Assembly (NCBI GenBank): GCA_016184315.1
Contig: JACPCU010000021.1
Span: 10,050-74,049, forward strand
Source: Nitrososphaerota archaeon
GTDB lineage: Archaea; Thermoproteota; Nitrososphaeria; Nitrososphaerales; JACQRY01
Length of the DNA stretch: 64,000 bases
Direction: 5' to 3'
Positions 3,070 through 24,901 of this stretch are shown in pieces; positions within the stretch are counted from its first letter, which is position 1; each line of letters begins with the position of its first letter. The notes beneath the pieces are model-generated. The model worked only from the letters and a program-made list of their open reading frames with translations, was not told the origin of the DNA and did no database searches. The translations under genes were made by a program, and so were the position numbers.

Positions 3070-4524
3070 CTAGTTTTCCACTGTCACATTCACTGGTACT
3101 AGCCTAGTTACTCCTCCGTAGGCGGCTCCCACCATCAGGGTGTACATGCCTTCTTGCAGTGTCTGGGCGGCTGAGAGTCGTAGAATGTAGCCTGTTCGGG
3201 TGTCGCTTGAAAGGGCCTGACTGGGCTCAAAGGTGGCTGTCATGTTCCTTAGGTTGCCCGTGACCGAGAAGGTTCCTGCAATGATGGTCTGAGGCCTAGC
3301 AGACTCACCCACTGTAGACACGATGACACCTAGCTGGGCTGAACCGCCTTTAGTAAGTTTCACCGATTGTTGCTGGACCGTTATGTCAAAGGGGATTGGA
3401 GTATTAGGGTCTATGACGCCGATCTTGTTTTCGCTCCACTCTGTGAACCATATCTTTCCATCGGGTGCTAAGGCCAGTTGAAGTACGTTAGCGATGTCGC
3501 CCCACTCAGGGTTAGCAGTGGGCACATCATATTCCACCAGCTGATTCAACGAAGGGTCGAAGTATGATATTCGGTTGCCTTGATGCTGGTTGAACCATAT
3601 TCTTCCTTTCTGATCTATGTCGCCCCAGTAGGGGAGGGAAACGACGTGCTTGGTGGTGCTTACCGAAGTGGCGTAGACGTTGGTGACGTTGAGGGCGGGG
3701 TCGAATAAGGCGAAGAAGTTGCTTCCGTGATCCGTGATCAGTAACCTTCCTGACGGGTCAAGAGTGATTCCGACTGGAGACTTGATCTCGGGGGGCAGGT
3801 TGAAGCCTTGGAATCTGTTTGCAGAGGGGTCGAAGTAGCCCACTTTTCCCGCGAAGGGGAATGTAAGCATGGTGAACCAGATTCTTCCCTTCGAGTCTCC
3901 AGTCAATCCGCCCACCGTCTCAAGTCTCTCTGGAGGAGTTAGCTCGTCGATTCCCTCTGAAGTCCCTGCTTTGACTTGGGCGGGGTTGATTCTGCCCAGC
4001 TTGTTTCCCAAGGCTTCACTGAACCAGACCGCTTGATCCTCGGCGACATATATCTGGACGGGGAAGCTTTCCTTGGTGGGGATCAAATACTTCTCGAAGT
4101 CTTTGGAAGCAGGGTCGAATCTCCAAACCGCGTTGCCAGCCACATCTGTAAACCAGATTCTTCCAGTCTTGTCGAAGCTCATGCTCCAAATCTCGGTGGC
4201 CTCGTTTCCGCTGATTGGGATCTTGAACTCTGCAAAGCTCTTGTCACTAGGATTGAAGCGGGCTATCTTCCCCTCCCTAGTCAGAGCTAGCCAAATATTT
4301 CCCTGCAGATCAGCAATTATGCCAAGGGGTTGGGAGCAGGTGCTGGGGATCAGATGCTCCTGCACGAACTGGTTCGAATTGACGACACCAGAGCCGCATA
4401 CCCTCTTTTTCTCCAATTCATCCTGTTTCGGCTCTGCCGAACGGGGAGCAAACAGAAATGCCAGTGTTGAGACTGCGAGGATCGCGATGACAGCTACAAC
4501 CAGAACCTTGCGACGCTGACGCAC
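3070..4524 (-). CDS. Secreted or membrane-anchored beta-propeller protein with Vgb (streptogramin-lyase, COG4257)-like repeats and a C-terminal Ig-like domain
   Basis: N-terminal hydrophobic helix (VLVVAVIAILAVSTLAFLF). Repeated blades of type G(R/K)IWFT(D/E)...N.(I/V)(G/W)R(F/I)(D/N)P, e.g. GRIWFTDVAGNAVWRFDP, AVWFSEALGNKLGRINP, GKIWFTEWSENKIGVIDP. The C-terminal ~100 aa are beta-rich. Confidence 0.6.
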   Translation of the reverse strand: MRQRRKVLVVAVIAILAVSTLAFLFAPRSAEPKQDELEKKRVCGSGVVNSNQFVQEHLIPSTCSQPLGIIADLQGNIWLALTREGKIARFNPSDKSFAEFKIPISGNEATEIWSMSFDKTGRIWFTDVAGNAVWRFDPASKDFEKYLIPTKESFPVQIYVAEDQAVWFSEALGNKLGRINPAQVKAGTSEGIDELTPPERLETVGGLTGDSKGRIWFTMLTFPFAGKVGYFDPSANRFQGFNLPPEIKSPVGITLDPSGRLLITDHGSNFFALFDPALNVTNVYATSVSTTKHVVSLPYWGDIDQKGRIWFNQHQGNRISYFDPSLNQLVEYDVPTANPEWGDIANVLQLALAPDGKIWFTEWSENKIGVIDPNTPIPFDITVQQQSVKLTKGGSAQLGVIVSTVGESARPQTIIAGTFSVTGNLRNMTATFEPSQALSSDTRTGYILRLSAAQTLQEGMYTLMVGAAYGGVTRLVPVNVTVEN

Positions 4525-4740
4525 CTACGATCGCCTCTTATCTAAGCGCAACCGAGTTTAGGCTCGTAGATGAATCTTCCCTTATGCGTTTCCGATAGCT
4601 GTGCGGGCAACGGTCAGCATCTTGCACTTTATATTGTAAGGGGGGTTTCTACACATGCGCATCTCAAAGAGTTATCAGAACTCCCTATGGCCTAGTCCAG
4701 AACACATAAAACCATGTCAAAGAATAAGGGCTGATTAGAT

Positions 4741-5148
4741 ATGGATGCAAGTTACTCTAATCGCCCCCCGAAGACAGTGGCGTTCATATCGACTCTCTCA
4801 GTGCTATGGGGCGGATTCCTCGTCTTCATCGGAGTCTTGGGAGCGGTGTCAGCAACATTCCTCAAGACTGTGCAGCCTACTGTCCCCTACCTTATCGCGG
4901 TAGCCATAGGCACAGGAGCACTGCAGGTCACCGCGGGATTCAAGTTGAAGAGCCTCAGACCCATCGGGTTCTGGATCATGGTTTCAGCAGTAGTGGTCAA
5001 CATACTGTTTTCCACAGTAGGACTCATAACAGGGGTTCAAGAGACTTCAGGGGTAATCCTCTCTTTTCTCGTTAATGGCTTCATCGCCGTTTATCTGGCT
5101 GTGAAACGGCAGCTATTCAGAATCCGATCGAACAGGTCAGCTATCTAA
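4741..5148 (+). CDS. Small integral membrane protein (about 4 TM), unknown function
   Basis: 135 aa with four hydrophobic segments (FISTLSVLWGGFLVFIGVLGAV, YLIAVAIGTGALQVTAGF, IGFWIMVSAVVVNILFSTVGLI, VILSFLVNGFIAVYLAV). No recognisable family. Confidence 0.45.
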   Translation: MDASYSNRPPKTVAFISTLSVLWGGFLVFIGVLGAVSATFLKTVQPTVPYLIAVAIGTGALQVTAGFKLKSLRPIGFWIMVSAVVVNILFSTVGLITGVQETSGVILSFLVNGFIAVYLAVKRQLFRIRSNRSAI

Positions 5149-5154
5149 CATCGC

Positions 5155-6453
5155 CTACTGCGGTGTTTTAGCCACCCTTGCCGCTACTTCATCTATAGGC
5201 AGCGTTTCCTCTTTGCCGCTCACCATGTCTTTTAAGACGACTTTGCCCTCCTGAAACTCCCTCGGGGCAACTATGACGACATACGGAACCTTTGTTGAAG
5301 AAGCATGTTCAAGCTGGTGGCGGAGTCCCCTGCCCATCATCTCAAGTTCAGTGGAGACACCAAGCCCTCTAAGCTTAGAGGCCAGCTTTGAAGCTTCAGC
5401 GGCCATCTGCTTAGCCACATAAGCCACGAAAACCTTTACGCCGCTGTCCCCCATGGATCCGCCACGGTTCCTGATGGCAAGAATCATCCTATCCACTCCA
5501 CCTGCAGCACCAGTAGCCGCCACATCAGGTCTACCGAAGGCAGCCGGCAAACTGTCGTATCTTCCTCCGCCGCAGAGGGCTCCTAGATCAGGAGTGGCAG
5601 GGTCATAGACCTCGAAGACTATGCCAGTATAGTAATCTAGACCCCTCACGACCCCCATGTTCAAATCGACGTTCACGATTCTCCTAGACTTCAAAGAATC
5701 CAAGAGTCTGCTCAAATTGCCCTGAGTGTCCAACCCTTCCTTCTCTAGAGCAGACAAAACCTTGTCTGCTTCACCACGAATCATTCCAAAATCCATCACT
5801 CTCCGCACAACATTAGCGTCCAACCCTTTTCCAGAATACTCTCTTACGATTTCTTCTTCGCTCTTCTTAGAAGCCTTGTCCAACGCCCTCAGCAGCTCAA
5901 GTATGGCATCGGTTTCGCTTATCCCCAGCTTTTTCCTGAGAAACTCCTCCGCTACCCTTCTGTCACCGACCTGTATCTTAACGTCCCCTAGGCCGAGTCT
6001 GCTGAAGACTCTGGAGATTAACTCAATGATCTCCGCATCAGCCTCCACTCCCTGCGCGCCGAAGATCTCAGCGTCCCACTGGTAGAACCACCGGAACCTT
6101 CCGTGCTGAGGCTCATCATACCTCCACATGCTTGAAAACGCAGCTAGCTTCAGAGGCATGCTCAGATCGCGGCGGGAAGCAACGAACCTCGTCAAGCCCA
6201 CTGTAAGATCAAAGCGGAGCCCCACGTCTCTGCCGCCCTTATCAGTGAAATGGTAGATCTCTTCACGTATCCCCGCGCCGCTCTTAGCCTCCAAGGTGCT
6301 CAACAATTCAAGGGGAGAAGGCTCCATCTGTCTGAAGCCCAGGATACGACAGGTCTCAGAGAAAGCATCTCTGACCTTCTGGAGCAGGATGTAGTCGTCA
6401 GGCTCGATGTCCCGCATTCCCCTAGGGAGACCTAGATCCAAAAGATTCCGCAC
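5155..6453 (-). CDS. hisS: Histidine--tRNA ligase
   Basis: 432 aa. N-terminal PRGMRD, class II motif 2 region (MWRYDEPQHGRFRWFYQWDAEIFG), motif 3 (GGGRYD), C-terminal anticodon-binding domain. Confidence 0.92.
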   Translation of the reverse strand: MRNLLDLGLPRGMRDIEPDDYILLQKVRDAFSETCRILGFRQMEPSPLELLSTLEAKSGAGIREEIYHFTDKGGRDVGLRFDLTVGLTRFVASRRDLSMPLKLAAFSSMWRYDEPQHGRFRWFYQWDAEIFGAQGVEADAEIIELISRVFSRLGLGDVKIQVGDRRVAEEFLRKKLGISETDAILELLRALDKASKKSEEEIVREYSGKGLDANVVRRVMDFGMIRGEADKVLSALEKEGLDTQGNLSRLLDSLKSRRIVNVDLNMGVVRGLDYYTGIVFEVYDPATPDLGALCGGGRYDSLPAAFGRPDVAATGAAGGVDRMILAIRNRGGSMGDSGVKVFVAYVAKQMAAEASKLASKLRGLGVSTELEMMGRGLRHQLEHASSTKVPYVVIVAPREFQEGKVVLKDMVSGKEETLPIDEVAARVAKTPQ

Positions 6454-6458
6454 ACTCT

Positions 6459-7475
6459 CTACTGTTTCTTAGCTGTTGCTGCCCTCGTCTTCACAGCTTC
6501 AGCCTTGAAGCCCATTTCCCTGCCTATTCTGCCCAGCTCAGCGAGGAGAGCCGCCAACTGCACCTCAGCCCGAGCACCGACCGCCAGCCTGTAATCGTAT
6601 TTCGCCAACACTTCTGCCACTTCACCAACACTTGGAAGACCCAGGTTCAACAGTTCCTCAGAGCTGTACTTCAGAAAATCCTTCTCTGGCATACCATAAA
6701 CGCTGATCAGCTCAACGAGCCCGCTCCTAGACCCAGAAAAATCGCCTTCCAACGCTCTTGTAACCACTTCTTTCACCCTGGCTTTGCCCGACAAACCTAT
6801 AGCTTTCCTCACACCGTCAGCAGTAACCTCGCCGCCCATGGCCACAGCTTGAAGCAGGTTCAAAGCATGCCTCATATCCCCCCCGGTCAACTCGAAGATA
6901 GCCTCAAGAGCCTCTCTTCCTACTTTGACGCCTTCTGTCTTGCAGATCTCCTCAAGCCTCCCCGCTACATCTTCCAACCCGAGCCGGGAGAAATGGAAGA
7001 CGGCGCACCTGCTCTGAATAGGCTCAATTATCCCCGAAGAGTAATTAGCTATCAGAATAAACCTGCATATGCGCGAACTATCTTCAATAACTCTTCTCAA
7101 AGCTGTTTGAGCAGCAGAAGTCATCTCATCCGCCTCATCAAGAATGATGATGCGGAAGGGTACATCCACCCTCCTATCCACGTATCTGGCGAAGGTCTTC
7201 ACCCTTTGACGGACAGTGTCGATTCCACGTTCGTCGGAAGCATTCAAATCTAATGTGAAATCCCTCCAGTAATCACCCAGAATCACCCTGGCTGCGCATA
7301 GAGCTGCAGTGGTCTTACCTGTTCCCGGGGGCCCAGCGAAGAGCAGATGAGGCATATCCTGAGGCTTCTTAGCCATCTGGATAAGTCTCCCAACAGAGGC
7401 CTCTTGGTTCACAATATCCTCAAGTCTCTGGGGCCTATACTTCTCAACCCACATCAGACTCTCCGTTTCAGACAT
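6459..7475 (-). CDS. rfcS: Replication factor C small subunit
   Basis: 338 aa. WVEKYRP box, Walker A GPPGTGKTT, Walker B ILDEADEMT, SRC motif (QSRCAVFHF). No intein. Confidence 0.92.
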   Translation of the reverse strand: MSETESLMWVEKYRPQRLEDIVNQEASVGRLIQMAKKPQDMPHLLFAGPPGTGKTTAALCAARVILGDYWRDFTLDLNASDERGIDTVRQRVKTFARYVDRRVDVPFRIIILDEADEMTSAAQTALRRVIEDSSRICRFILIANYSSGIIEPIQSRCAVFHFSRLGLEDVAGRLEEICKTEGVKVGREALEAIFELTGGDMRHALNLLQAVAMGGEVTADGVRKAIGLSGKARVKEVVTRALEGDFSGSRSGLVELISVYGMPEKDFLKYSSEELLNLGLPSVGEVAEVLAKYDYRLAVGARAEVQLAALLAELGRIGREMGFKAEAVKTRAATAKKQ

Positions 7476-13861: not shown

Positions 13862-14293
13862 CTAGATGTCGAGGACTACCGTCGCTTGCCAGCCGTCAGC
13901 AGTCTGCCGCACTTCGAACCGGTGCATCGTGACTGCTTTCACATCTGCAATCAAGTTATGCTTCTTCATATCGATCTCTTCTCCATAGACATTCGCCTCC
14001 AACCTAAACTTCTCATCCACGTGCTCTATTGAAACATCGTATTTGCTGAAGAGGAGTAGCTCAGCATCCTTGTAGAAGACAAGCTCTTGAAGAAAATCGA
14101 AGAGCAGCCGCTCCACGTCGCCTGCTTCAAGAACAATCTTCCGCTCAACCTTCCTTTCCACCTTGTCAATATTGCGCACCATTACGACCTCTGTAGCCTC
14201 AGCAGCAGAGCCGAAGAGCTCAGAAAGTGTCCTTCCCTCCGCCCGGAAAGCTACGTCCGCCAGCGCAATGTCTTCGATGAAGATGTAGGGCAT
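13862..14293 (-). CDS. Archease (RtcB activator)
   Basis: 143 aa. MPYIFIEDIALADVAFRAEGRTLSELF...VKAVTMHRFEV is typical archease. Its ATG overlaps the rtcB TGA by 1 nt (TGATG at 14293). Confidence 0.88.
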   Translation of the reverse strand: MPYIFIEDIALADVAFRAEGRTLSELFGSAAEATEVVMVRNIDKVERKVERKIVLEAGDVERLLFDFLQELVFYKDAELLLFSKYDVSIEHVDEKFRLEANVYGEEIDMKKHNLIADVKAVTMHRFEVRQTADGWQATVVLDI

Positions 14294-15759
14294 CAGCCCT
14301 TCACGTTGCCAATAGGTATGAATCTGACCACAGGCTTAGAGATCCCGGCTACTCGAACAGCTTCAATCACGTCGTCAATATCCTTGTAGGCCGGCCCAGC
14401 CTCCTCTGCAACACCCTCATAGGAAACGGAGCGCACATAGATCCCTCTCTGCTCCATGTCTCTCAGCAGACGGTCGCCGCGAAATAACTTCTTCGCCTTG
14501 GTTCGACTCATAGTCCTCCCAGAACCATGACAGGTGCTGAAGAAGGTCTCCCTTCCACCAGGTGTTCCCACTAGCAGATAGGATCCTGTCTCCATGCTGC
14601 CCCCTATGATAATAGGCTGCCCAAGAGGACGGTATTCTTCAGGCATGTCTCCCATCCCCGGCCCGAAGGCTCTTGTCGCTCCCTTACGGTGCACCAGCAC
14701 GTCGCGGTTCACCTTGTCAACCTCATATCTTTCCAGCTTGGCTGTGTTGTGAGCAACATCGTAGACTTGGTGTAAGCCGAGGCTCTCCGCGTCCTTCTTG
14801 AACACGTTTGCGAAGACCTCTCTGATTCTGTGCAGGATCACCTGTCTGTTGACGAAGCTCATGTTTATGCCGCATTTCATTCCAGCGAAATAGTCTTGGC
14901 CTTCAGGCGAATGGAACGGTGCGCATGCCAGCTCGCGGTCAAGGATCTTGATGCCGTATTTGCGCTCCATTACGTTGAGGAAGACTTGGAGGTAGTCGCT
15001 GGCTACCTGGTGTCCGAAGCCTCTGGAGCCGCAGTGGAACATCACGACAATCTGGTTAGGCAGAGTTATCCCAAAGGCTTTTGCAAGTTCCTTGTCATAT
15101 ACGAATTCAGGCTTCACGACCTGCACTTCGAGATAGTGGTTCCCCGACCCTAAGGTGCCGATCTGATTCAGCCCACGGGTAACCGCTCTATTACTGATCT
15201 TGGATGTGTCAGCGCCCTCAACGCATCCACTTTCCTCAGTCTTCTCCAGATCTTCCTCCCATCCGTATCCCTTCTCGATGCACCAGCGGCCTCCCTTCTC
15301 AACCGCGGCGCGAAACTCGCTTGCGGACAGCTTGACGAACCCTGATGAGCCTACTCCAGCGGGAACACGGTGAAACAGTTGATCAACAAGCTCCTTCAGC
15401 TTGGGGCGAACATCATCATAGGTGAGATTAGTCAGAACCAGACGCATCCCGCAGTTGATGTCGAAGCCGATCCCTCCCGGAGAGATGACCCCCTCCTCAG
15501 CATCCATAGGGGCAACCCCACCGATAGGAAACCCGTAGCCAGAATGCCCATCAGGCATACAGTAAGCATACTGCAAAATGCCCGGGAGAGTAGCTACATT
15601 GGTGATCTGGTCAAACACCTGCTCATCCATGGTCTGCATAATCTTCTCAGTCGCATAGAGCCTAGCGGGAACACGCATTCCCTGCTTGAAGCTGGGAGGA
15701 ATCTCCCAGACCACATCACTGACGCGTCGAACCTGTTGGGGGAAGGTCAATTCTAACAC
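14293..15759 (-). CDS. rtcB: RNA-splicing ligase RtcB
   Basis: 488 aa. Motifs MPDGHSGYGFPIGG, DINCGMR, GSGNHYLEVQ, HCGSRGFGHQ, HGSGR. Confidence 0.95.
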   Translation of the reverse strand: MLELTFPQQVRRVSDVVWEIPPSFKQGMRVPARLYATEKIMQTMDEQVFDQITNVATLPGILQYAYCMPDGHSGYGFPIGGVAPMDAEEGVISPGGIGFDINCGMRLVLTNLTYDDVRPKLKELVDQLFHRVPAGVGSSGFVKLSASEFRAAVEKGGRWCIEKGYGWEEDLEKTEESGCVEGADTSKISNRAVTRGLNQIGTLGSGNHYLEVQVVKPEFVYDKELAKAFGITLPNQIVVMFHCGSRGFGHQVASDYLQVFLNVMERKYGIKILDRELACAPFHSPEGQDYFAGMKCGINMSFVNRQVILHRIREVFANVFKKDAESLGLHQVYDVAHNTAKLERYEVDKVNRDVLVHRKGATRAFGPGMGDMPEEYRPLGQPIIIGGSMETGSYLLVGTPGGRETFFSTCHGSGRTMSRTKAKKLFRGDRLLRDMEQRGIYVRSVSYEGVAEEAGPAYKDIDDVIEAVRVAGISKPVVRFIPIGNVKG

Positions 15760-15961
15760 CTAATTCTAAGAATAGATATCCGCAAGACAGTGGCCAAGAA
15801 GCACGCTTTTAAGATTTGGGCTCTGAAATCACGTTGTTTCACAATCACCCCTTTTGGTTGGCGGTCACTCCAATGGGTGTTCTTGTAAGTTCTCTGATTT
15901 ATCCGCATGGCGTTAATGCAAAGGAATAAATTTCGGCTAGAAGGAATAGTTAGACGAATCA

Positions 15962-16114
15962 ATGCCCATTTGTCCTCGGTGCGGGAAATTTGTCAAGGAT
16001 CTTCGAAAACATAGAAGTAGGAACAGGTGTAGAGTAAAGGGGAAACGCAAGGCGGAGGCACTACCCTTACCAAGCAGTCTTCAAGAAAAACTGACAAATC
16101 CTATGGTCTATTAG
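15962..16114 (+). CDS. Hypothetical small basic protein with a C-x2-C...H-x4-C zinc-knuckle-like pattern
   Basis: Below the ORF-track size cutoff. Own translation: MPICPRCGKFVKDLRKHRSRNRCRVKGKRKAEALPLPSSLQEKLTNPMVY (50 aa). It sits at the left edge of the Rhs island. No other support. Confidence 0.25.
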   Translation: MPICPRCGKFVKDLRKHRSRNRCRVKGKRKAEALPLPSSLQEKLTNPMVY

Positions 16115-16150
16115 GGAATTTGATGGTTCAAGACGTAAACAAGGTGAGGG

Positions 16151-16462
16151 ACCTCTTCAACAAGGCCACGGTGCACCATCAGCTACACGTATGATCAGGT
16201 GGGAAACAGGTTGACGAAGAAAGAAGGCACCACAACTGTAGCCTACACCTATGGAGCCTACAACAGGCTCACCTCCACAAACAGCTCTCTCACATTCACC
16301 TATGATAACAACGGGAACACGCTCAGCAAGATTGAGGGTGGAGACACTTGGAACTACACTTACAACTACAACAACATGATGACGAAAGCAGTCAAGAACA
16401 GCGTTACTCAAGGACAGTATTTCTACGATGGGGAGAATAAGAGGGTGAAAGTCATCGAAGGT
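16151..16462 (+). repeat. YD-repeat block, copy A (paralogous to 21031..21350 and the degraded copy at 22125..22345)
   Basis: Encodes TSSTRPRCTISYTYDQVGNRLTKKEGTTTVAYTYGAYNRL...YNYNNMMTKAVKNSVTQGQYFYDGENKRVKVIEG, against copy B TSSTGPWGTISYTYDQVGNRLTKTEGSTTSYTYGTYNRL...YDYNNMMTKAVKNSVTQGQYFYDCDNRRVKTIES. 16373-16416 and 21247-21290 match at 43 of 44 nt. Confidence 0.9.
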
Positions 16463-17557
16463 TCCACTCTGATCAACATGTTCAACGGTTTAAACATCAT
16501 CTACCAGAAGAACATGACGAGTGGAAGCATATCTAAATTCTTCTTCGCCAACGGTCTGGTGATAGCTAAGAACAATGGTTCGTCGACCTATTATCATCAG
16601 GACTCTCTTGGAAGCACAAGGTTGACCACCAGCTCATCGAAGCTCCAGATATTCGCTTCGAACTACAAGCCTTTCGGACCCTTGTACAACCAATCGGGAA
16701 CAGAGAAGGTGAAGTACACGGGGAAATGGGAGGACTCACCTACCAAGCTATACTACTTCGGAGCTCGTTACTATGACCCGGAGATAGGCAGATTCACAAC
16801 TCAGGACACAGTTGTGACCATCAACCAATATATCTACGCCAATAACAATCCGTACAAATATATCGGCCCCACGGGAAGAGAACCGGTGAGAAAGGAAATT
16901 GGTTCGTATGAGTTGATAGTCGATTACATAAGAGGACTCGAAGCGTCTCATCCTGGTGCTAAACCAACAGAAATATTGAATATGATAGTCAACAGAGAAG
17001 GCCCAGGCTTTGGGCAACCTAAATTTGGTGACGGATATCCAAAAGATGCTCGCTATATTTACTCGGAAAGCGCAGGCTTTGTGGATATGCTTCATTTCTT
17101 TGATAACGCTAAGTTGGGTGCCAATTACGGGATCGGGCCCTTCGACCCTGCCGGCATTGCACTCGACTATGGCGTGGAGATTGGACAGGCCGCGACGAGA
17201 GATAGACCGAGTGCGTTCAGCTACGAGGACATCACTTCGAATCGACTAGGACGAGCGTTCGGAGTGAATGTCCTGACTTCTAGCATCCTTGTGACTGTTG
17301 GCATCTCTGACGATAAACCTTTGTCACAACAATTCTCTGATTACATGAAGAATATAGGTGCCTCAACAAATCCAGAAGAAACCATCAAGAAACAGCATCC
17401 TGGGTTGTGGGAAACCATCCCGGAAAACCGGGACGCCGTACAGAAGACAGGTTTCCTACCGGCTTCAAGGACATGTGTCATCTGTTATGGGCCTGCTATT
17501 CCAGATTCTTTGGGATCAATACCAATAGTCGGTGGAATTCTGTCATGGGCGTTTTAG
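16199..17557 (+). CDS. Orphan Rhs/YD-repeat C-terminal module 1: YD repeats, Rhs core end, and an unassigned ~230-aa C-terminal (toxin-like) domain
   Basis: ORF track 452 aa. The frame is open from 16148 (after TGA at 16145-16147) with no ATG; the first candidate start is GTG at 16199. YD repeats, then the Rhs-associated core signature YYFGARYYDPEIGRFTTQD, then a degenerate tip motif YANNNPYKYIGPTGRE (canonical form NNPxxxxDPxG). An unrelated domain follows, ending in a hydrophobic tail (GSIPIVGGILSWAF). Confidence 0.78.
   Translation: MGNRLTKKEGTTTVAYTYGAYNRLTSTNSSLTFTYDNNGNTLSKIEGGDTWNYTYNYNNMMTKAVKNSVTQGQYFYDGENKRVKVIEGSTLINMFNGLNIIYQKNMTSGSISKFFFANGLVIAKNNGSSTYYHQDSLGSTRLTTSSSKLQIFASNYKPFGPLYNQSGTEKVKYTGKWEDSPTKLYYFGARYYDPEIGRFTTQDTVVTINQYIYANNNPYKYIGPTGREPVRKEIGSYELIVDYIRGLEASHPGAKPTEILNMIVNREGPGFGQPKFGDGYPKDARYIYSESAGFVDMLHFFDNAKLGANYGIGPFDPAGIALDYGVEIGQAATRDRPSAFSYEDITSNRLGRAFGVNVLTSSILVTVGISDDKPLSQQFSDYMKNIGASTNPEETIKKQHPGLWETIPENRDAVQKTGFLPASRTCVICYGPAIPDSLGSIPIVGGILSWAF
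16538..16807 (+). repeat. Rhs core-end block, copy 1 (paralogous to 18065..18340)
   Basis: FFFANGLVIAKNNGSSTYYHQDSLGSTRLTTSSSKLQIFASNYKPFGPLYNQSGTEKVKYTGKWEDSPTKLYYFGARYYDPEIGRFTTQD, against KYFYANGLMIARVNPFATTYFHQDSLGSTRLTTSASKLQLFASNYKPFGPVYNQSGTEKVKYTGKWEDSATKLYYFGARYYDPEIGRFTTQDP. Confidence 0.9.
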
Positions 17558-17574
17558 GCATCATAAGGAGGTCG

Positions 17575-17985
17575 ATGCTACTCAGAACCTATCTGGCGTT
17601 GGTAACGGCTTCTTCTTTGCTAGGTATCTATTCGGGCATTTATGTCGAAAATGTGAAAGCGTCGAATCCTGGGGTAGATCCAGAGCTGTTATTGGAATTT
17701 GATCCGGTTTTCCCCATAAATGGACTGTTCATCATATGCATAATGATTTTCAGTGTCTATATCCTAGCAGCGTCCATCGACAAGACGTATCCGACCTTTA
17801 TTCTGCTTTTGCCTTTAGCCGAACTGGCATTAATTGCGATAAGGATTTTCGGAGACGAAAGCCTGTTTTACCCAGTGTTATCCGCCCAGATACTGTTGTC
17901 GTCGCTCCTACTTCTTGCGTCCTATGTTTCGCCTTCAAACCCATCTAGACTAGAGATAAGAAGACGGGAAGGTAAGGCAGATTAA
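17575..17985 (+). CDS. Four-TM membrane protein; candidate immunity protein for Rhs module 1
   Basis: ORF track 17407..17985 overlaps the Rhs ORF. Plausible starts are ATG at 17545 or ATG at 17575, which is preceded by AGGAGG (17566-17571). Hydrophobic segments: LLRTYLALVTASSLLGIYSGIYV, INGLFIICIMIFSVYILAASI, TFILLLPLAELALIAIRIF, VLSAQILLSSLLLLASYV. The role is inferred from position only. Confidence 0.5.
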   Translation: MLLRTYLALVTASSLLGIYSGIYVENVKASNPGVDPELLLEFDPVFPINGLFIICIMIFSVYILAASIDKTYPTFILLLPLAELALIAIRIFGDESLFYPVLSAQILLSSLLLLASYVSPSNPSRLEIRRREGKAD

Positions 17986-17989
17986 GTGG

Positions 17990-18959
17990 TTGAAACTAAT
18001 ACCAGAGTCTTCACATGCCTTGGCTTACATAATTCAGGAGAGGGATGTCAACGTCGTCAGCAAATACTTCTATGCTAACGGTTTGATGATTGCTAGGGTT
18101 AATCCTTTCGCTACGACGTACTTCCATCAGGACTCATTGGGCTCAACGAGGCTGACGACTAGCGCATCTAAGCTCCAGTTATTCGCTTCCAACTACAAGC
18201 CTTTTGGGCCAGTGTATAACCAGTCGGGAACGGAGAAGGTGAAGTATACGGGGAAATGGGAGGACTCAGCAACCAAACTATACTACTTCGGGGCTAGATA
18301 CTACGACCCTGAGATAGGGAGGTTCACCACGCAGGATCCCGTGCTGGGAACATCTGACGATCCGCAGACGCTGAACCGTTACCCGTATGCTAAGAATAAT
18401 CCGTTGAAGTATGTTGATCCTGATGGCAGGTTCATAGACACTATCTTCGATGCCTTTGGTATCCTCAATTCCTTTCATACCGACCTTCGGAGTTATCAGG
18501 AAGACTGTTCGTCATATTGACGATGCAATCCGCGGCGTTAGGAAGGTAGATCTCGACGATCTTACTGCGGCGACTAAGAAGATAGGCGGGTTGATGGATG
18601 ATACGCTAAGTCACCGAGGACATTTTGAAGACATGAAAGCGAACGGGCTTGTCGAGGCTCAGACCTTTGAGGCTTTTCAGCAAGAGGCTAAAGATTTTGT
18701 TCATAAGGGTGTGACTGCAGCCAAGAGTGGTGATAGCAACTATAAGATCTATGCCCAGAACGACGGAGCCTATGCAATCGTTGACACTAAGAGGCAGATA
18801 TTTGCTATCTATGATCCCGAACAGGACAAGGTTAGGACATTCTTCTCACCCCTACAAGGTGATGCCGAACATCGTTCGATAACGATGCAACAATACATCG
18901 AAATGAAGCTGGAAGCTGGACGGCAAGGAAAAACAGAAGGCTGGAGGCCCACTGGTTAA
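17990..18959 (+). pseudogene. Orphan Rhs C-terminal module 2: Rhs core end with a canonical DPxG tip and an unassigned toxin-like domain, split by a +1 frame shift near 18465-18480
   Basis: ORF 17990..18520 has YYFGARYYDPEIGRFTTQDP...YAKNNPLKYVDPDGRFIDTIFDAFGILNS and then stops. ORF 18450..18959 in the next frame continues sensibly (IPFIPTFGVIRKTVRHIDDAIRG...SHRGHFEDM...YKIYAQNDGAYAIVDTKRQIFAIYDPEQDKVRTFFSP). Skipping one nt near 18471 joins them into about 320 aa. Confidence 0.65.
18065..18340 (+). repeat. Rhs core-end block, copy 2 (paralogous to 16538..16807)
   Basis: See 16538..16807. Roughly four-fifths nt identity by eye, with near-identical stretches (gagaaggtgaagta[c/t]acggggaaatgggaggactca). 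Confidence 0.9.
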
Positions 18960-19661
18960 ATGGCTGTCAGAAAGAATCTTCTTGAGCATGACCCTTACTT
19001 TGACTCACTAATACGTCGTAAGTCGGAAGGCGTGATAGAAGCCCTAGGGAGAGTCGAAAAGGGTCTAAAGGAAGATCGGAATTCAAGAGACTTTCCTTGG
19101 GATGAACCATTTAGTTTCTTGGGCATGCTTGTCTACGATCTGGAAGAGGCGGAGGAGAACGGATACGATATCTCCCCCTATGAGCGAATTAGAGTGGAAT
19201 GCGTTGAAAATGTGAAGGCGTTCTGCCAAAAATGGGGAAAGAAATACCTTGATAAGGTTAGGGATTTCATGAAATTCTGGTATGCGGATTCATATGCAGT
19301 GTGGATCAGGAAATTAGAGGAGATGATTAAGAGCGGAGAGCTCGTCAAAGAATCCCCTATACATATGAAGATTTCATGCTTCGAATCTCGCGTGATAAAA
19401 GCTTACGGGCTTGCGGGGCTAAGAGCTGTATCAATAGCAAAAGAAATAGACATGCACGAAATTGAGCGTATAGTAGCTGAGTGTGATGAACGCTTTCGAA
19501 AATTACTTCCTGCGATAGCCAAGACCTACGCCAATGTTCCTAACCTATTCAAGGGAAATTCCCCTAGGACTTGGTGGTGGCACCATGAAGCGCGCCGCCT
19601 GCATGAGATGTATAGAGCCCAGTTGTCACCTGGAACCCCTGACAGAGATTACTACACATAA
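18960..19661 (+). CDS. Hypothetical helical cytoplasmic protein; candidate immunity protein for Rhs module 2
   Basis: 233 aa. Its ATG directly follows the stop of the toxin-domain ORF (18957-18959). W/K/E-rich helical sequence (WGKKYLDKVRDFMKFWYADSYAVWIRKLEEMIKSGE) with no TM segment or signal. No family recognised; the role is inferred from position. Confidence 0.5.
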   Translation: MAVRKNLLEHDPYFDSLIRRKSEGVIEALGRVEKGLKEDRNSRDFPWDEPFSFLGMLVYDLEEAEENGYDISPYERIRVECVENVKAFCQKWGKKYLDKVRDFMKFWYADSYAVWIRKLEEMIKSGELVKESPIHMKISCFESRVIKAYGLAGLRAVSIAKEIDMHEIERIVAECDERFRKLLPAIAKTYANVPNLFKGNSPRTWWWHHEARRLHEMYRAQLSPGTPDRDYYT

Positions 19662-21435
19662 AGATGATCTAACGGATCAGACCTACGATAAGGCTGGGAA
19701 TCTTCTTACAGTTAAGGATGCTAAGGGCCAGTTGACGAGGTTCTACTATGATGACTTGAATAGGAATATCAAGACCACGTTTCCGGACAACAAGAATCAG
19801 ACTGGGTTCTACGATGTGTTGGGGAATGTGGTGGGTGTGAAGGATTCTAATGGTAACTCTACGAGCTTTGCGTATGATGAGGGGGGTAGGCTGTTCTATG
19901 CTGGGAGCGGCGCGGGGAGGGATAATCTTGTCGCTTGGTGGCTCTTTGACGAAGGCTTGGGCGGCTCTGTTAGGGATAGTAGTGATAACAAGAATTCGGG
20001 GGTCTTGGTGAACGGCCCCGTGTGGGTTGAGGGGAAGCAGGGTAGGGCCTTGAGTTTTGATGGGGTGGATGATTCCGCGGACTTTGGGGATAAGGCTGGT
20101 TTCCGTTTCGGGGGCGGGAGCTTCAGTTTGAGCGCGTGGGTGAAGACTTCGTCGGCCTCTAATCAGGGTATTATTGACAAGAAGTTCGGCTTCGGCGCCG
20201 GGGTGGCTGGTTACTCGCTTTTCGTGAATACGAACGGTAATCTGCGTTACCAGATTTCGGATGGGGCGAGTCAGAATGATAATAATGCTGGTGTGGTGAG
20301 GGATGGGAACTGGCATCATGTGGCGATGGTGAGGAATGCGTCTAGCTCTAGGGTCAATCTGTATGTTGATGGTGTGCAGGTGTTAAGTGACTCTACTACT
20401 GTAGGCAATTTGGACAATGCTCAAAGCCTGTACGTTGGCTACGGTGCCGGTGGGGGAAACTTTTTCCCTGGGTCAATCGATGATGTTAAGGTGTTTTCGA
20501 GGGCTTTGGGTGCGGCGGAGGTTTTGGCTGAGTATCGTTCCCAAGGCGTGTCAGTCATCTATGATAAGATGAGTAACAGGGTGTCTATGAGCGACTCCGC
20601 TTCCGCTGCCACGTATGGTTATGATGCTTTGAACAGGCTGCTCAGCGAAGCCAAGACTGTTGACGGTTCACAGTACACTACATCCTTTACCTATGATGCT
20701 GGGAGCCGTGTGACGAAACTGACTTATCCTGATGCTTACCAGTTGAGCTACCAGTATGATGATTTGGATAGGGTGAAGAGCCTCGGGGGCTTTGCTAACT
20801 TCACTTACACGAAGGACAATAAGGTTAAGACGATTACTTATGGTAATGGTATTCAGACGACGTATACCTATGATTTGAGGAGCAGAGCAACGAGAATACT
20901 TGTCCAGGACGGTTCAACCACTAAGCTGGATTTGAACTATGCTTACAAAGGTAACGGGGATGTAGAAAGCATTGATGATGGGTATGCTCCTACAGATGAG
21001 ACCTACAGCTACGATGGCTTGGACAGGTTGACCTCTTCCACTGGGCCTTGGGGCACCATAAGCTACACTTATGATCAAGTAGGGAACAGGTTGACCAAGA
21101 CTGAGGGCTCCACGACAAGTTACACCTATGGAACATACAATAGGCTTACCCAAGCAGGCTCAACCAACTACACATACGATAATAACGGCAACATGATTAC
21201 GAAGAACGATGGCACAGACTCATGGACATACACCTACGATTACAACAACATGATGACCAAAGCAGTCAAGAACAGCGTTACTCAAGGACAATACTTCTAC
21301 GACTGTGATAATAGACGCGTCAAGACTATTGAGTCTGGGAGCACGACGATATTATGGTTACACTCAAAAAGTAGCTGGTGGATCCTAAGGTTCGTCCGTG
21401 ATGGCTACTGTACCATTTCTCTTATCGTAGATTAG
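19534..21435 (+). CDS. Rhs/YD-repeat core fragment with an embedded LamG/concanavalin-A-like lectin domain; lacks an N-terminal secretion region and the Rhs core end/toxin tip
   Basis: 633-aa ORF. Recognisable YD repeats begin at 19663, 2 nt after the stop of the previous gene (DDLTDQTYDKAGNLLTVKDAKGQLTRFYYDDLNRN). The LamG_3-like block is about 19921-20548 (LVAWWLFDEG...GRALSFDGVDD...FSLSAWVK...WHHVAMV...LYVDGV...IDDVKVFSRAL). More YD repeats follow. Homology to copy A ends near 21350 and the last ~28 codons are out-of-context sequence. Confidence 0.8.
   Translation: MFLTYSREIPLGLGGGTMKRAACMRCIEPSCHLEPLTEITTHKDDLTDQTYDKAGNLLTVKDAKGQLTRFYYDDLNRNIKTTFPDNKNQTGFYDVLGNVVGVKDSNGNSTSFAYDEGGRLFYAGSGAGRDNLVAWWLFDEGLGGSVRDSSDNKNSGVLVNGPVWVEGKQGRALSFDGVDDSADFGDKAGFRFGGGSFSLSAWVKTSSASNQGIIDKKFGFGAGVAGYSLFVNTNGNLRYQISDGASQNDNNAGVVRDGNWHHVAMVRNASSSRVNLYVDGVQVLSDSTTVGNLDNAQSLYVGYGAGGGNFFPGSIDDVKVFSRALGAAEVLAEYRSQGVSVIYDKMSNRVSMSDSASAATYGYDALNRLLSEAKTVDGSQYTTSFTYDAGSRVTKLTYPDAYQLSYQYDDLDRVKSLGGFANFTYTKDNKVKTITYGNGIQTTYTYDLRSRATRILVQDGSTTKLDLNYAYKGNGDVESIDDGYAPTDETYSYDGLDRLTSSTGPWGTISYTYDQVGNRLTKTEGSTTSYTYGTYNRLTQAGSTNYTYDNNGNMITKNDGTDSWTYTYDYNNMMTKAVKNSVTQGQYFYDCDNRRVKTIESGSTTILWLHSKSSWWILRFVRDGYCTISLIVD
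21031..21350 (+). repeat. YD-repeat block, copy B (within the core fragment)
   Basis: See 16151..16462. Confidence 0.9.
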
Positions 21436-21822
21436 GCGAAGCTTGTTCAGAATATCTCTTCCAAGGACACTTGGAATCCTCAGTATGTTCTCATCAATCT
21501 TATCGTGTCTCACTACTAACAGCTCTGTAAGTGACTCTCTATGCTCAGCCCCCTCATCGGTTCTGAAGTAGAGCTCCGCATCCCTTGCAACAAATGTTCC
21601 CACAACACCTCCTAAGCCTAGTAGGGGCTGTTTCGATTCCCCGAGCCTAGCGTATGAAATGCCCATCGATAAAACGTCCTTATCCAGAATGGCGGTCTTT
21701 GTGGCGCCGGTATCGATCAGTAACTCTATGCTCTGCCTTATGTTGAGCTTAGGCACCGCGACTACAGCAGTAAGATAGGCTCCTTCTAAGGGCCCGGCTC
21801 TAAAGTAGCCTTTCAGACGCAC
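21385..21822 (-). CDS. Retropepsin-like (clan AA) aspartic protease, small single-domain prokaryotic type
   Basis: 145 aa with a GTG start at 21822. Catalytic signature LIDTGATKTAIL (D-T-G-A) and later SVLGRDILNKL (flap/dimer-interface-like). Resembles the archaeal AF_0612-type clan AA proteases (family name from memory). Confidence 0.75.
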   Translation of the reverse strand: MRLKGYFRAGPLEGAYLTAVVAVPKLNIRQSIELLIDTGATKTAILDKDVLSMGISYARLGESKQPLLGLGGVVGTFVARDAELYFRTDEGAEHRESLTELLVVRHDKIDENILRIPSVLGRDILNKLRLIYDKRNGTVAITDEP

Positions 21823-22083
21823 CTATACCACAAGAACCATATTAATCGGTTTCTTGGTCACGTATTCTATCGCTACCTCTGAGTATCTCCCAGCCAGTTT
21901 CTTTCTCAACCGTGCCGCGAGCCTCTTCAGGTCCCCGTCGTAGTCGATCACGCTTTTGTCGAGAACAGCTACCCATTTGTCGTCGTATCTTTTGGTCAGC
22001 TGTTTGTAGCTTAAATTAAGCCACTTTCGGTTCTCCTCCGCTCTAGAAATAAGTTCAGCGATGGACATAGTACCCTGACTCAA
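21823..22083 (-). CDS. Small DUF5678-like protein, translationally coupled to the aspartic protease
   Basis: 86 aa. Its stop TAG (21825-21823) abuts the protease GTG (21822). The pattern W..LSYKQL...Y.DKWVAVLDKSVIDYDGDLKRL resembles small antitoxin-like beta-proteins annotated DUF5678 (family name from memory, unverified). Confidence 0.45.
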   Translation of the reverse strand: MSQGTMSIAELISRAEENRKWLNLSYKQLTKRYDDKWVAVLDKSVIDYDGDLKRLAARLRKKLAGRYSEVAIEYVTKKPINMVLVV

Positions 22084-22124
22084 CTTATTGTAAAGAGCTT
22101 AAATTCTTATCTACCGCATATAGT

Positions 22125-22345
22125 TATGACGGCTTGGATAGACTGATATCTTCGACAGGCACGTGGGGCACCATCAGCCACACTTACGGAACTTACAACA
22201 GGCTTAGGCAGGTTCGACCAACTATACTTACGATAACAATGGGAACATGATCAGCAAGATAGCTGGGGGAGACACTTGAAACTACACCTACAACTACAAC
22301 AACAGGAAGAGCAAAGCTGTGAAGAACAGCGTTACACAAAGAAAA
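22125..22345 (+). pseudogene. Degraded third copy of the YD-repeat block (Rhs fragment C)
   Basis: Reads YDGLDRLISSTGTWGTISHTY-GTYNRL..(frame break)..YTYDNNGNMISKIAGGDT*NYTYNYNN..KAVKNSVTQ. An internal deletion removes the DQVGNRLTK.. segment. There is an indel frame break, and TGG has become TGA at 22277-22279. Confidence 0.75.
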
Positions 22346-22404
22346 CACCTCGTGACCGTGCCGGCTACGCCTTCGAACAGACAACCAATTCTCTATTTAT
22401 AGAG

Positions 22405-22506
22405 AGGTCTCTCTGTCTCCGTCTCTCCCCCCCTCCCTCCCCCCCAACCACACACCGCGAGAAAGACAACCCCACAACACCCAACTACCCACCAAAAGAC
22501 CAACCC
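22405..22506. repeat. Pyrimidine/C-rich low-complexity tract (plus strand) with a C7-T-C3-T-C7 core; G-quadruplex/i-motif-capable
   Basis: 22427-22445 reads ccccccctccctccccccc, which is G7-A-G3-A-G7 on the minus strand. The flanks are CT/CA-rich. It lies between Rhs fragment C and the 3' end of the minus-strand gene that stops at 22507. Confidence 0.7.
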
Positions 22507-22884
22507 CTACTCTTCAGCAGACTTCAACTTATCCTGCAAAGAAACAAGCCTACCACTATCCTCAACCGCAATCCTAGTCTCCACCCTAACATTCAACCCC
22601 AAATTCCTGAAAAGCGACAGAAGCTCTCCACCAGAAACATACTCCTTCAAAGTACCCTCCTTGATCAGAGCCGCAAGCCTCTTCACAATAACCTGAGTCT
22701 CCCTAGGATAGAATGTTTCCGCAGCCTCCAACACCTCCACTCCCCTATCCACCAAATATCCGACAACGATCTCCCTGTCAGTCCTCTCCTTGGTCTTCTC
22801 TTTGGACTGTTCTTGAGCAAGCTTCTTCCTAAGCTGCATCATCTTCTTCCTAGTGATAAGATCGAGTTCTCTGTCGCTCTCCAT
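22507..22884 (-). CDS. PDCD5/TFAR19-like double-stranded DNA-binding protein (COG2118-like)
   Basis: 125 aa. N-terminal ELDLITRKKMMQLRKKLAQEQ and the central helical part (LVDRGVEVLEAAETFYPRETQVIVKRLAALIKEGTLKEYVSGGELLSLFRNL) parallel the MTH1615-type family as I recall it. Confidence 0.55.
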   Translation of the reverse strand: MESDRELDLITRKKMMQLRKKLAQEQSKEKTKERTDREIVVGYLVDRGVEVLEAAETFYPRETQVIVKRLAALIKEGTLKEYVSGGELLSLFRNLGLNVRVETRIAVEDSGRLVSLQDKLKSAEE

Positions 22885-23930: not shown

Positions 23931-24901
23931 ATGGTTGACCCTATTCTGACAGCATCAATCATAGTTCCACTATTAGTGTTGCTCTACATTTTCACGCTAG
24001 GTTTCAGGATCGTCATACCAACCGAAAGAGGCCTAGTTGAGAGACTCGGAAAACATGAGCGTTTCGTGGAGCCCGGATTCCACTGGATCATCCCCGTTGT
24101 CCACAGAATGTTTAAAGTGAACATAACAGAAAAGATGGTCACCGTTGCACAGCAAGCAATCATCACTAAGGACAAACTGAACGCCCAGGTGAGCGCCCAA
24201 ATCTACTTCAAAGTGAAGCCAGAGGAGGGCACGGTAAAGGCGAGCCAGTACAACGTCAACAAAGTAGATGAACAGATAGTAGCCTTGGCTCAAACTACTC
24301 TCCGAAACATTATCGGCACCAACACTGACGGAGGCCAACAGTGAGAGGAGCAGGATCAACAGCGACCTCATGAAGACCTTGAGCGAAGAAACAAAGCACT
24401 GGGGAATGCAAGTCGTCAGAGCCGAGCTCAGGGAGATAGATCCGCCTCCAGACGTGCAGGAGACCATGAACAAGGTCGTCAAAGCTGAAAACGAGAAGAC
24501 TGCTGCAAGAGACTTCTCAGAAGCAAAAAGAGACCCAGGCAGACGGCGAGCGCAGAGTAGCCATCAAGATCGCCGAGGGCAGGAAACAAGCGGAGATCCT
24601 CGAAGTAGAAGGAAGGAGGCAAGCTCTCATACTTGAAGGAGAAGGCAAGGCCAAAGCACTGGAAACAGTGTTCACCGCCTCTGAGCAATGCTTCAAAGGA
24701 GGCGCAATAACACTGCGCCAAATAGAAGTAGTGGAGAACTCTCTAAAAGAGAACAGCGTCTTCATAGTCCCAGAAGACCAGCAGCTAGTGAACCTCATCA
24801 GTGGAATCGCAGGAGCAGGCACCGTCATGATCCCGATGGGCAAGAAGACCAATACTGGCGAAGAGCAATCCAAAGAATCAGCTGCCAAATCTAGAAAGTA
24901 G
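23931..24901 (+). pseudogene. SPFH/stomatin-prohibitin (band 7) family gene interrupted by two +1 frame shifts
   Basis: Three consecutive ORFs in frames 0, 1 and 2 (23931..24344, 24370..24636, 24668..24901) together read as one SPFH protein: TM helix, IVIPTERGLVERLGKHERFVEPGFHWIIP...LRNIIGT | TLTEANSERSRINSDLMKTLSEETKHWGMQVVRAELREIDPPPDVQETMNKVVKAENEKTAARDFSEAK | ETQADGERRVAIKIAEGRKQAEILEVEGRRQALILEGEGKAKALE... Breaks are near 24318-24323 and at the A5 run 24525-24529. Confidence 0.8.

Follow-up and report, generated by a model that had tools for sequence, protein, structure and literature searches.

The 64,000-nucleotide stretch of Nitrososphaerota DNA analyzed here (the window, taken from contig JACPCU010000021.1) contains on its minus strand, at about 21354-22118, a cassette of two genes, of which the first encodes a small protein of the DUF5678 family and the second a retropepsin-like aspartic protease. 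Comparison with related loci indicates that, in archaea and bacteria alike, the DUF5678 protein and the protease are obligate partners coupled in translation, a link that is new here, and the function of the pair is likewise without earlier description. The reading preferred below, whose chances are put at about even, is that the two genes form a toxin-antitoxin-like or defense module in which the small protein restrains the protease. A module of this general kind had been proposed in an earlier reading of the same DNA (the original prediction). The pairing itself, the spread in multiple copies, the asymmetric decay of the two genes and the matches to component B of PDC-M08, a phage-defense candidate described further on, all fit that proposal, whereas the preference for defense islands is weak.

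Pairing was evaluated in a sample of 80 loci, limited to one genome per species and to the protease motif PS[VLI]LGRDIL only, within which partners were located using a small-protein hidden Markov model (HMM) iterated over the same loci. A DUF5678-like open reading frame (ORF) lies directly upstream of the protease gene and on the same strand at 78 of the 80 loci, and Pfam calls DUF5678 in 37 of 40 upstream partner ORFs; the two loci without regular pairing are one in which an insertion sequence (IS3) occupies the protease gene (L079) and one that holds a bare protease remnant (L071). In the reciprocal direction, all six DUF5678 proteins checked on long contigs are followed by the protease (four intact, two as remnants). 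The original prediction had left open whether the two genes co-occur elsewhere, and from both sides they do. The junctions consist of gaps of 0, +1 or +3 nucleotides (nt) or of 4-nt overlaps, within a range of about -14 to +15 nt. In the window, the TAG stop of the small gene (21823-21825) stands directly against the GTG start of the protease gene (21820-21822), so that the ORF coordinates agree with the abutting minus-strand frames first described there. This adjacency of stop and GTG is kept with TAG, TGA and TAA in the clade to which the window belongs, which speaks for termination-reinitiation coupling and against read-through. A read-through fusion arising from the in-frame TAG and GTG was considered and rejected, as the relatives use TGA, TAA or TAG, other frames and 4-nt overlaps.

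The product of the second gene (145 amino acids, aa) is retropepsin-like and, as judged from its motifs and its predicted fold, has all the hallmarks of an active homodimeric retropepsin. A catalytic D-T-G-A, flap glycines and a GRD/N motif are the signatures of retropepsins. The ORF carries LIDTGATKTAIL, and the corresponding motifs of the protein are D37-T-G-A40, a flap G71-G72, and P117-S-x-L-G-R-D-I-L125; DTGA, GG and PSxLGRDIL show little or no variation in alignments of 28 and 58 homologues, and among the 58 homologues D37 is invariant while T, G and A are each at least 90% conserved. G71-G72 and G121-R-D123 align with GiGG and LLGRD of the feline immunodeficiency virus (FIV) protease, and the protease family profile matches FIV protease (6.6e-7) and Rickettsia ApRick (2.5e-6) as well as the proteases of equine infectious anemia virus (EIAV) and Rous sarcoma virus (RSV). 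The AlphaFold2 (AF2) model of the protease has a predicted local distance difference test score (pLDDT) of 91.8 and a predicted template modeling score (pTM) of 0.86, and a Foldseek search with this model returns APRc (5c9f) at the top, together with the proteases of FIV, RSV, human immunodeficiency virus (HIV) and human T-lymphotropic virus (HTLV) and with Ddi1, all with a probability of 1.0; the target TM-scores are 0.6-0.68 (APRc 5c9f and the FIV, RSV and HIV proteases). Motifs, FIV profile match and modeled fold thus bear out the retropepsin signature that had been noticed at the outset. The window protease scores 17-21 bits against PF13975, PF00077, PF13650, TIGR02281 and TIGR03698, below their cutoffs of 20.7-58, and many of its homologues carry precomputed PF13650, PF13975 or PF00077 matches. 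Since it lies under the curated cutoffs and possesses the motifs and the fold, it is a clan member outside the curated families. It is 100% identical to the NCBI protein HYU39_07515.

The first gene was initially called as an ORF of 86 aa starting from TTG (21823..22083, minus strand), which is the length that the original prediction gave. The ORF is correct but its start is not: because database homologues are 81 aa long and have the N-terminus MSI..., and because the same codon is used as a TTG start in one relative, the start is placed at ATG 22066-22068, which yields 81 aa. The assignment to DUF5678, by contrast with the start, needed no revision, as the protein matches PF18929 with an E-value of 6e-9 (36.0 bits against a cutoff of 23.2) over profile positions 1-49 of 49 and by this measure is a bona fide DUF5678 member. 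The family is large, a DUF5678-like profile collecting 2,483 cluster representatives at E<=1e-3 and 482 at E<=1e-10 (50% identity clusters, 1.84 billion), and in the searched literature no relevant work on DUF5678 was found.

Conservation of the small protein spans its whole length, and the DUF5678 domain runs to the last residue of the protein, long forms included. The C-terminus in the window, ...PINMVLVV, is a hydrophobic tail. Three hydrophobic residues are found at the C-terminus in 122 of 141 database members and in 60 of 83 locus-derived small proteins, the commonest tails being TMIL, TLIL and KLIL and the consensus x-M/L-I-L-COOH; as the nucleotide junctions vary between clades, the constraint on the tail acts at the level of the protein. 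Some tails extend 2-5 residues beyond ...MIL (for example TMILSIEC, or NMVL-VV in the window). An AF2 model of the small protein, built from 17 sequences, has an N-terminal helical region at low confidence, a pLDDT of 59.6, and values below 50 for residues 64-81, which makes it too poor for a fold search; the poorly modeled tail is compatible with a segment that becomes ordered on a partner, although the alignment was shallow. Profile sequence search found no solved structure similar to the small-protein family. Long DUF5678 proteins were considered as informative fusions and rejected, since they owe their length either to a wrongly called start or to DUF5678 repeats in tandem. Five polypeptides (P0197, P0275, P0247, P0268 and P0322) contain two or three tandem DUF5678 repeats and have tails without the ...IL end; they possibly form a subfamily of their own, whose partner or function is a different one.

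The signals around the two genes (Table 1) suggest a compact transcription unit. The TATA-like box AATTTAAG lies 30-37 nt upstream of the small-gene ATG and is the sole flanking sequence common to the cassettes of relatives (L085, L001), and the 5' region is probably an archaeal promoter that gives rise to a near-leaderless mRNA; the oligo-T run after the protease gene is probably an archaeal terminator. Similarity to related cassettes stops at the protease stop codon, and the conserved unit across relatives consists of promoter plus two genes. The cassette junctions recur unchanged in four further assemblies from the same study, and the base composition of the cassette is the same as that of its flanks. 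Compared with relatives, the ratio of nonsynonymous to synonymous substitution rates (dN/dS) is 0.05-0.15 for both genes (0.05-0.08 for the small gene), with dS saturated; both cassette genes are, on these ratios, under strong purifying selection.

The two genes do not decay alike. Among 92 pairs, 75 are complete and 3 are copies in which both genes are lost. The protease gene is broken and the small gene intact at six loci (L017, L033, L065, L079, L091 and L096), and the reverse is found at none. Loss of the protease with retention of the small gene fits the pattern expected of a toxin/antidote relation.

Individual loci illustrate the forms that such changes take. In L079, from an alphaproteobacterial metagenome-assembled genome (MAG; 4383-6345), IS3 OrfA (4812-5102) and OrfB (5099-5965) lie in the 5' part of the protease gene, of which an N-terminal stub (4666-~4750) and the remainder (5986-6345) can be recognized, and the upstream DUF5678 gene is intact. 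L091 (5001-5473) and L095 (5001-5989) are Dehalococcoidia loci in synteny, each with ~833-aa proteins of no recognized family and a 2-hydroxyacid dehydrogenase at its flanks; in L095 an intact pair is followed by a HicB-like gene, and in L091 a protease shortened to 66 aa is followed by other genes. At two further Dehalococcoidia loci, L066 (5983-6732) and L078 (5995-6756), the protease runs past ...LGRDILN, with ~100 aa of unrelated sequence after it. The last beta-strands may have been lost in this way through a frameshift or through an error in long-read assembly, an example of how some of the apparent decay may be a sequencing artifact.

The pair is found in archaea belonging to Thaumarchaeota, Bathyarchaeia, Brockarchaeota, Geothermarchaeales and Crenarchaeota, and in bacteria that include many Chloroflexota (Dehalococcoidia, SAR202, Tepidiformaceae), Binatia, Zixibacteria and Alphaproteobacteria, and some bacterial copies resemble the archaeal ones (about 40% identity) more closely than they do the remaining bacterial copies. 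At least six genomes have 2-3 copies, and tandem pairs occur at several loci. The 126 immediate neighbors represent 93 Pfam families, none of which occurs at more than 6 loci, and there is no conserved third gene among them, nor any transposase or integrase in the conserved cassette. A few neighbors are DpnI-like enzymes, methyltransferases and TIR-domain proteins, and individual loci adjoin IS1595 transposases, an AbiEii gene or a HicB-like gene. The pair thus appears from its genomic contexts to be a self-contained two-gene unit that is dispersed like toxin-antitoxin modules and not concentrated in defense islands. As to a location in variable or defense islands, about which the original prediction asked, the contexts are scattered and unrelated, and only about 5-7 of the 126 neighbors (~5%) are truly defense-like by PADLOC. 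On one archaeal contig (L085, GCA_030157145.1) a decayed second copy, consisting of a small-like ORF (6964-7182) and a 54-aa protease fragment (7187-7351), precedes the intact pair; the same contig has an AbiEii/nucleotidyltransferase gene (5715-6434) with a 310-aa upstream partner, and the region 5715-7351 is a small cluster of toxin-antitoxin-like genes adjoining a ribosomal protein gene.

In the module proposed here, promoter, DUF5678 gene, stop-start coupled protease gene and oligo-T terminator would make up an autonomous two-gene operon that works in the manner of a type II toxin-antitoxin or abortive-defense module. The protease would act as effector, and the small protein, translated ahead of it and in proportion to it, would be the inhibitor that belongs to it. 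Inhibition would most likely proceed through docking of the hydrophobic C-terminal tail of the small protein on the protease, where the tail might sit in the substrate cleft as a cleavage product does or supply a strand to the dimer interface; if stress or infection caused the small protein to be lost or titrated away, the protease would then be free to attack proteins of the cell or of a virus. The most specific version of this proposal, that the pair is the first toxin-antitoxin or abortive-defense family with a retropepsin-type effector, silenced by the free hydrophobic C-terminus of its partner plugging the active-site cleft, is tentative and rather unlikely. If the proposal is true, an aspartic protease would be a new enzymatic class among toxin-antitoxin and defense effectors, the orphan Pfam family DUF5678 would gain a function as a family of protease inhibitors, and free-standing prokaryotic retropepsins would acquire a cellular role. 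The pair would also provide a simple two-protein system in which to study the regulation of a retropepsin by a trans-acting inhibitor, would be a prokaryotic counterpart of the restraint of retroviral protease by a peptide encoded just upstream, and would bear on the origin of retroviral-type proteases.

Several observations weigh against a toxin-antitoxin or defense role. The neighbors of the pair are mostly housekeeping genes (tRNA synthetases, NAD synthase, ABC transporters) and defense-like ones are few, and no relatives of the pair were found on viral contigs, in phage genomes, on plasmids or in PHROGs. Within the archaeal clade the small protein is the better conserved of the two (81% identity, compared with 67% for the protease), which is the reverse of many toxin-antitoxin pairs. 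No DNA-binding domain (helix-turn-helix (HTH), ribbon-helix-helix (RHH), AbrB or Phd) was detected in the small protein among 40 members searched with Pfam or in the longer forms. The decay asymmetry amounts to six cases only, some of them from long-read MAGs with possible frameshift errors, and the protease gene is a larger mutational target than the small gene. The matches of the window's own proteins to PDC-M08 are weak or absent (5e-4 for component B, none for component A), and no report tying DUF5678 to a protease or to toxin-antitoxin systems was found in the searched literature.

The strongest alternative, although fairly unlikely, is a non-toxic enzyme-partner pair that serves regulation or housekeeping and not addiction or defense. 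The small protein would then be a dedicated substrate, a precursor or a specificity adaptor of the protease; it might, for example, be matured or inactivated by cleavage near its C-terminus. Obligate adjacency and strong purifying selection on both genes suit such a pair as well, the mainly housekeeping neighbors agree with it, the small protein is conserved along its entire length, and the extra residues that follow ...MIL in some tails could in principle be cleaved off. However, no third gene (transporter, modification enzyme or target) is conserved beside the pair, and the unrelated contexts, the multiple and tandem copies and the patchy spread across domains are unusual for a housekeeping function. 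The retention of the small gene after loss of the protease is also difficult to reconcile with this alternative, as a substrate without its enzyme is not expected to persist.

An anti-phage sensor-effector of the PDC-M08 type, in which a phage component would unleash the protease and bring about abortive infection, and which would not be a classical addiction module, is unlikely. PDC-M08 is a PADLOC phage-defense candidate (cassette CAS_00054, FAM_03167>>FAM_00414) that came to light through 'guilt by embedding' in BREX, DISARM or type I restriction-modification (RM) loci and has 381 RefSeq occurrences (Payne et al., bioRxiv 10.1101/2024.01.29.577857); beyond one supplementary table, the name was not found in the searched literature. 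The HMM of its component B matches 35 of 58 protease homologues (best 1.4e-8), and matches the window protease weakly (5e-4, 18 bits); together with the few DpnI-like, methyltransferase and TIR-domain neighbors, and with the embedding of PDC-M08 itself in known defense loci, this speaks for an anti-phage role. However, PDC-M08 is itself a candidate only, and the resemblance does not extend to the small protein, as the HMM of component A gives no match to the window small protein, none among 55 family members, and two among 40 (at 2e-3). Moreover, the neighborhoods of the pair show no enrichment for defense islands, and in the window no defense genes lie beside the pair except Rhs debris.

Table 1. 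Positions of the two-gene cassette and of the Rhs sequences around it (coordinates in the window).
Feature	Position	Strand	Remarks
5' region with TATA-like box AATTTAAG	22069..22118	minus	box at 22098-22105 (+ strand); probable promoter
DUF5678 small gene, 81 aa	21823..22068	minus	PF18929 match, 81-aa homologues
Retropepsin-like (clan AA) aspartic protease, 145 aa	21385..21822	minus	motifs, profile match, AF2 fold
3' spacer past protease stop	21354..21384	minus	T5 run (A-run 21366-21370 on + strand); probable terminator
Truncated Rhs gene 'Rhs2' (N-terminal/core), RHS repeats and Laminin_G_3	19534..21435	plus	context, outside module
Rhs 'fragment C', pseudogene remnant	22119..22367	plus	context, outside module
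Rhs C-terminal core and tip	16130-17557		
Orphan Rhs C-terminal piece	17990-18520		

The Rhs sequences on both sides of the cassette had suggested that its arrival destroyed an Rhs gene, that is, that a mobile cassette split an intact gene and left the core on the left and the continuation (fragment C) on the right. Rhs-like sequence is indeed present within about 30-50 nt of both cassette ends: homology of Rhs2 reaches to about 21350-21353, which leaves 31 nt up to the protease stop codon, and Rhs homology restarts in fragment C at about 22113-22119, ~50 nt past the small-gene ATG. The Rhs2 frame extends into the protease region, its last ~27 codons being read-through antisense to the protease gene. 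What does not hold is that fragment C resumes the interrupted core. It is a degenerate paralogue of core sequence upstream of the break, aligning to 21004-21313 and to 16150-16439 with 72-78% identity, and the defects of its own that it bears (a 60-nt deletion, a frameshift and an in-frame stop) likewise mark it as a paralogous remnant of older date, not a severed continuation. Likewise, the target-site duplications or terminal repeats that the original prediction proposed to look for were sought at the cassette, and only chance-level repeats of 8-13 nt were found; an 11-nt imperfect inverted repeat (21329/22073) was rejected as a transposon end, being one of ten similar pairs. As the conserved cassette is also without integrase or transposase, as Rhs is near the pair at 0 of about 90 other loci, and as the whole islet 15760-22500 is a patchwork of Rhs pieces, the splitting of an intact Rhs gene is very unlikely. 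None of 80 metagenome RtcB loci has the neighbors seen in the window. The position of the cassette beside Rhs is best read from these comparisons as incidental and without functional meaning, in an islet scrambled by recombination and not the site of a clean insertion.

The islet is bordered by RtcB (14293-15759) and by a gene for a PDCD5-like dsDNA-binding protein (22507-22884), and the wider region consists of core genes (MCM, GINS, Hel308, RFC, HisRS and a ribosomal protein operon). Between 16199 and 19661 the islet has two Rhs tips of the C-terminal kind, and behind each of them lie small ORFs (17407-17985, which encodes a hydrophobic protein of 192 aa, 18450-18959 and 18960-19661). These ORFs, which could be toxin/immunity pairs, are without a match in Pfam, whereas a weak DUF4056-like match was obtained for the first tip. 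A C-rich low-complexity tract, CCCCCCCTCCCTCCCCCCC, is located at 22385-22420 between fragment C and the PDCD5-like gene and may mark a recombination or deletion scar. Downstream, a Band_7 (stomatin-like) gene appears to be split into two ORFs (23931-24344 and 24370-24636; 137 aa and 88 aa), which are called as two genes in the Logan assembly as well (L081); the split may be real or the result of a frameshift.

A repressor with an anti-repressor protease, as in ImmR/ImmA, in which the protease would cleave a small regulator and so switch a program on, is extremely unlikely. The order of small gene and protease gene in one operon and the N-terminal helical region of the small protein would suit it, but searches of 40+55 family members and of the longer forms detected no HTH, RHH or AbrB domain, no mobile-element or regulon genes accompany the pair, and the model of the small protein is of low confidence.

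Compared with known systems, the pair preferred here as a toxin-antitoxin-like or defense module resembles PDC-M08 in being a two-gene cassette with a retropepsin-like protein, which in PDC-M08 is component B, of ~127 aa; unlike PDC-M08, which is embedded in defense loci, the pair in the window adjoins Rhs fragments and housekeeping genes. As judged by the profile matches, a related cassette has already been flagged as a defense candidate, and the window pair is a distant relative of it. With type II toxin-antitoxin systems (VapBC, RelBE, HicAB) the pair shares a small upstream gene coupled to a downstream enzyme, the organization as an autonomous two-gene unit, the scattered, multi-copy and patchy distribution across domains, the proximity at some loci to other toxin-antitoxin genes and IS elements, and the decay of the effector with persistence of the small gene; it differs in that the DUF5678 protein has no detected DNA-binding domain. 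We know of no established toxin-antitoxin toxin that is an aspartic protease, and the searched literature yielded neither an aspartic protease as a toxin-antitoxin toxin nor any combination of a retropepsin with toxin-antitoxin systems.

Among proteases, APRc/ApRick of Rickettsia (PDB ID: 5c9b/5c9f) resembles the window protein in fold and catalytic motifs and is a top match by both Foldseek and profile; APRc is membrane-anchored and, to our knowledge, has no DUF5678 partner. The clan AA families TIGR02281 and TIGR03698 match weakly (21 and 18 bits, against cutoffs of about 58), and since these scores are far under the NCBIfam cutoffs the window protease belongs to a separate clade. The transframe peptide p6* of HIV-1 is encoded just upstream of the protease, and its C-terminal end is a competitive, product-like inhibitor. 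The cassette differs from that arrangement in that its products are separate polypeptides, with junctions that lie in different frames and use all three stop codons; the likeness, which is intended as an analogy only, is that the product of the upstream gene ends here in a conserved hydrophobic C-terminus.

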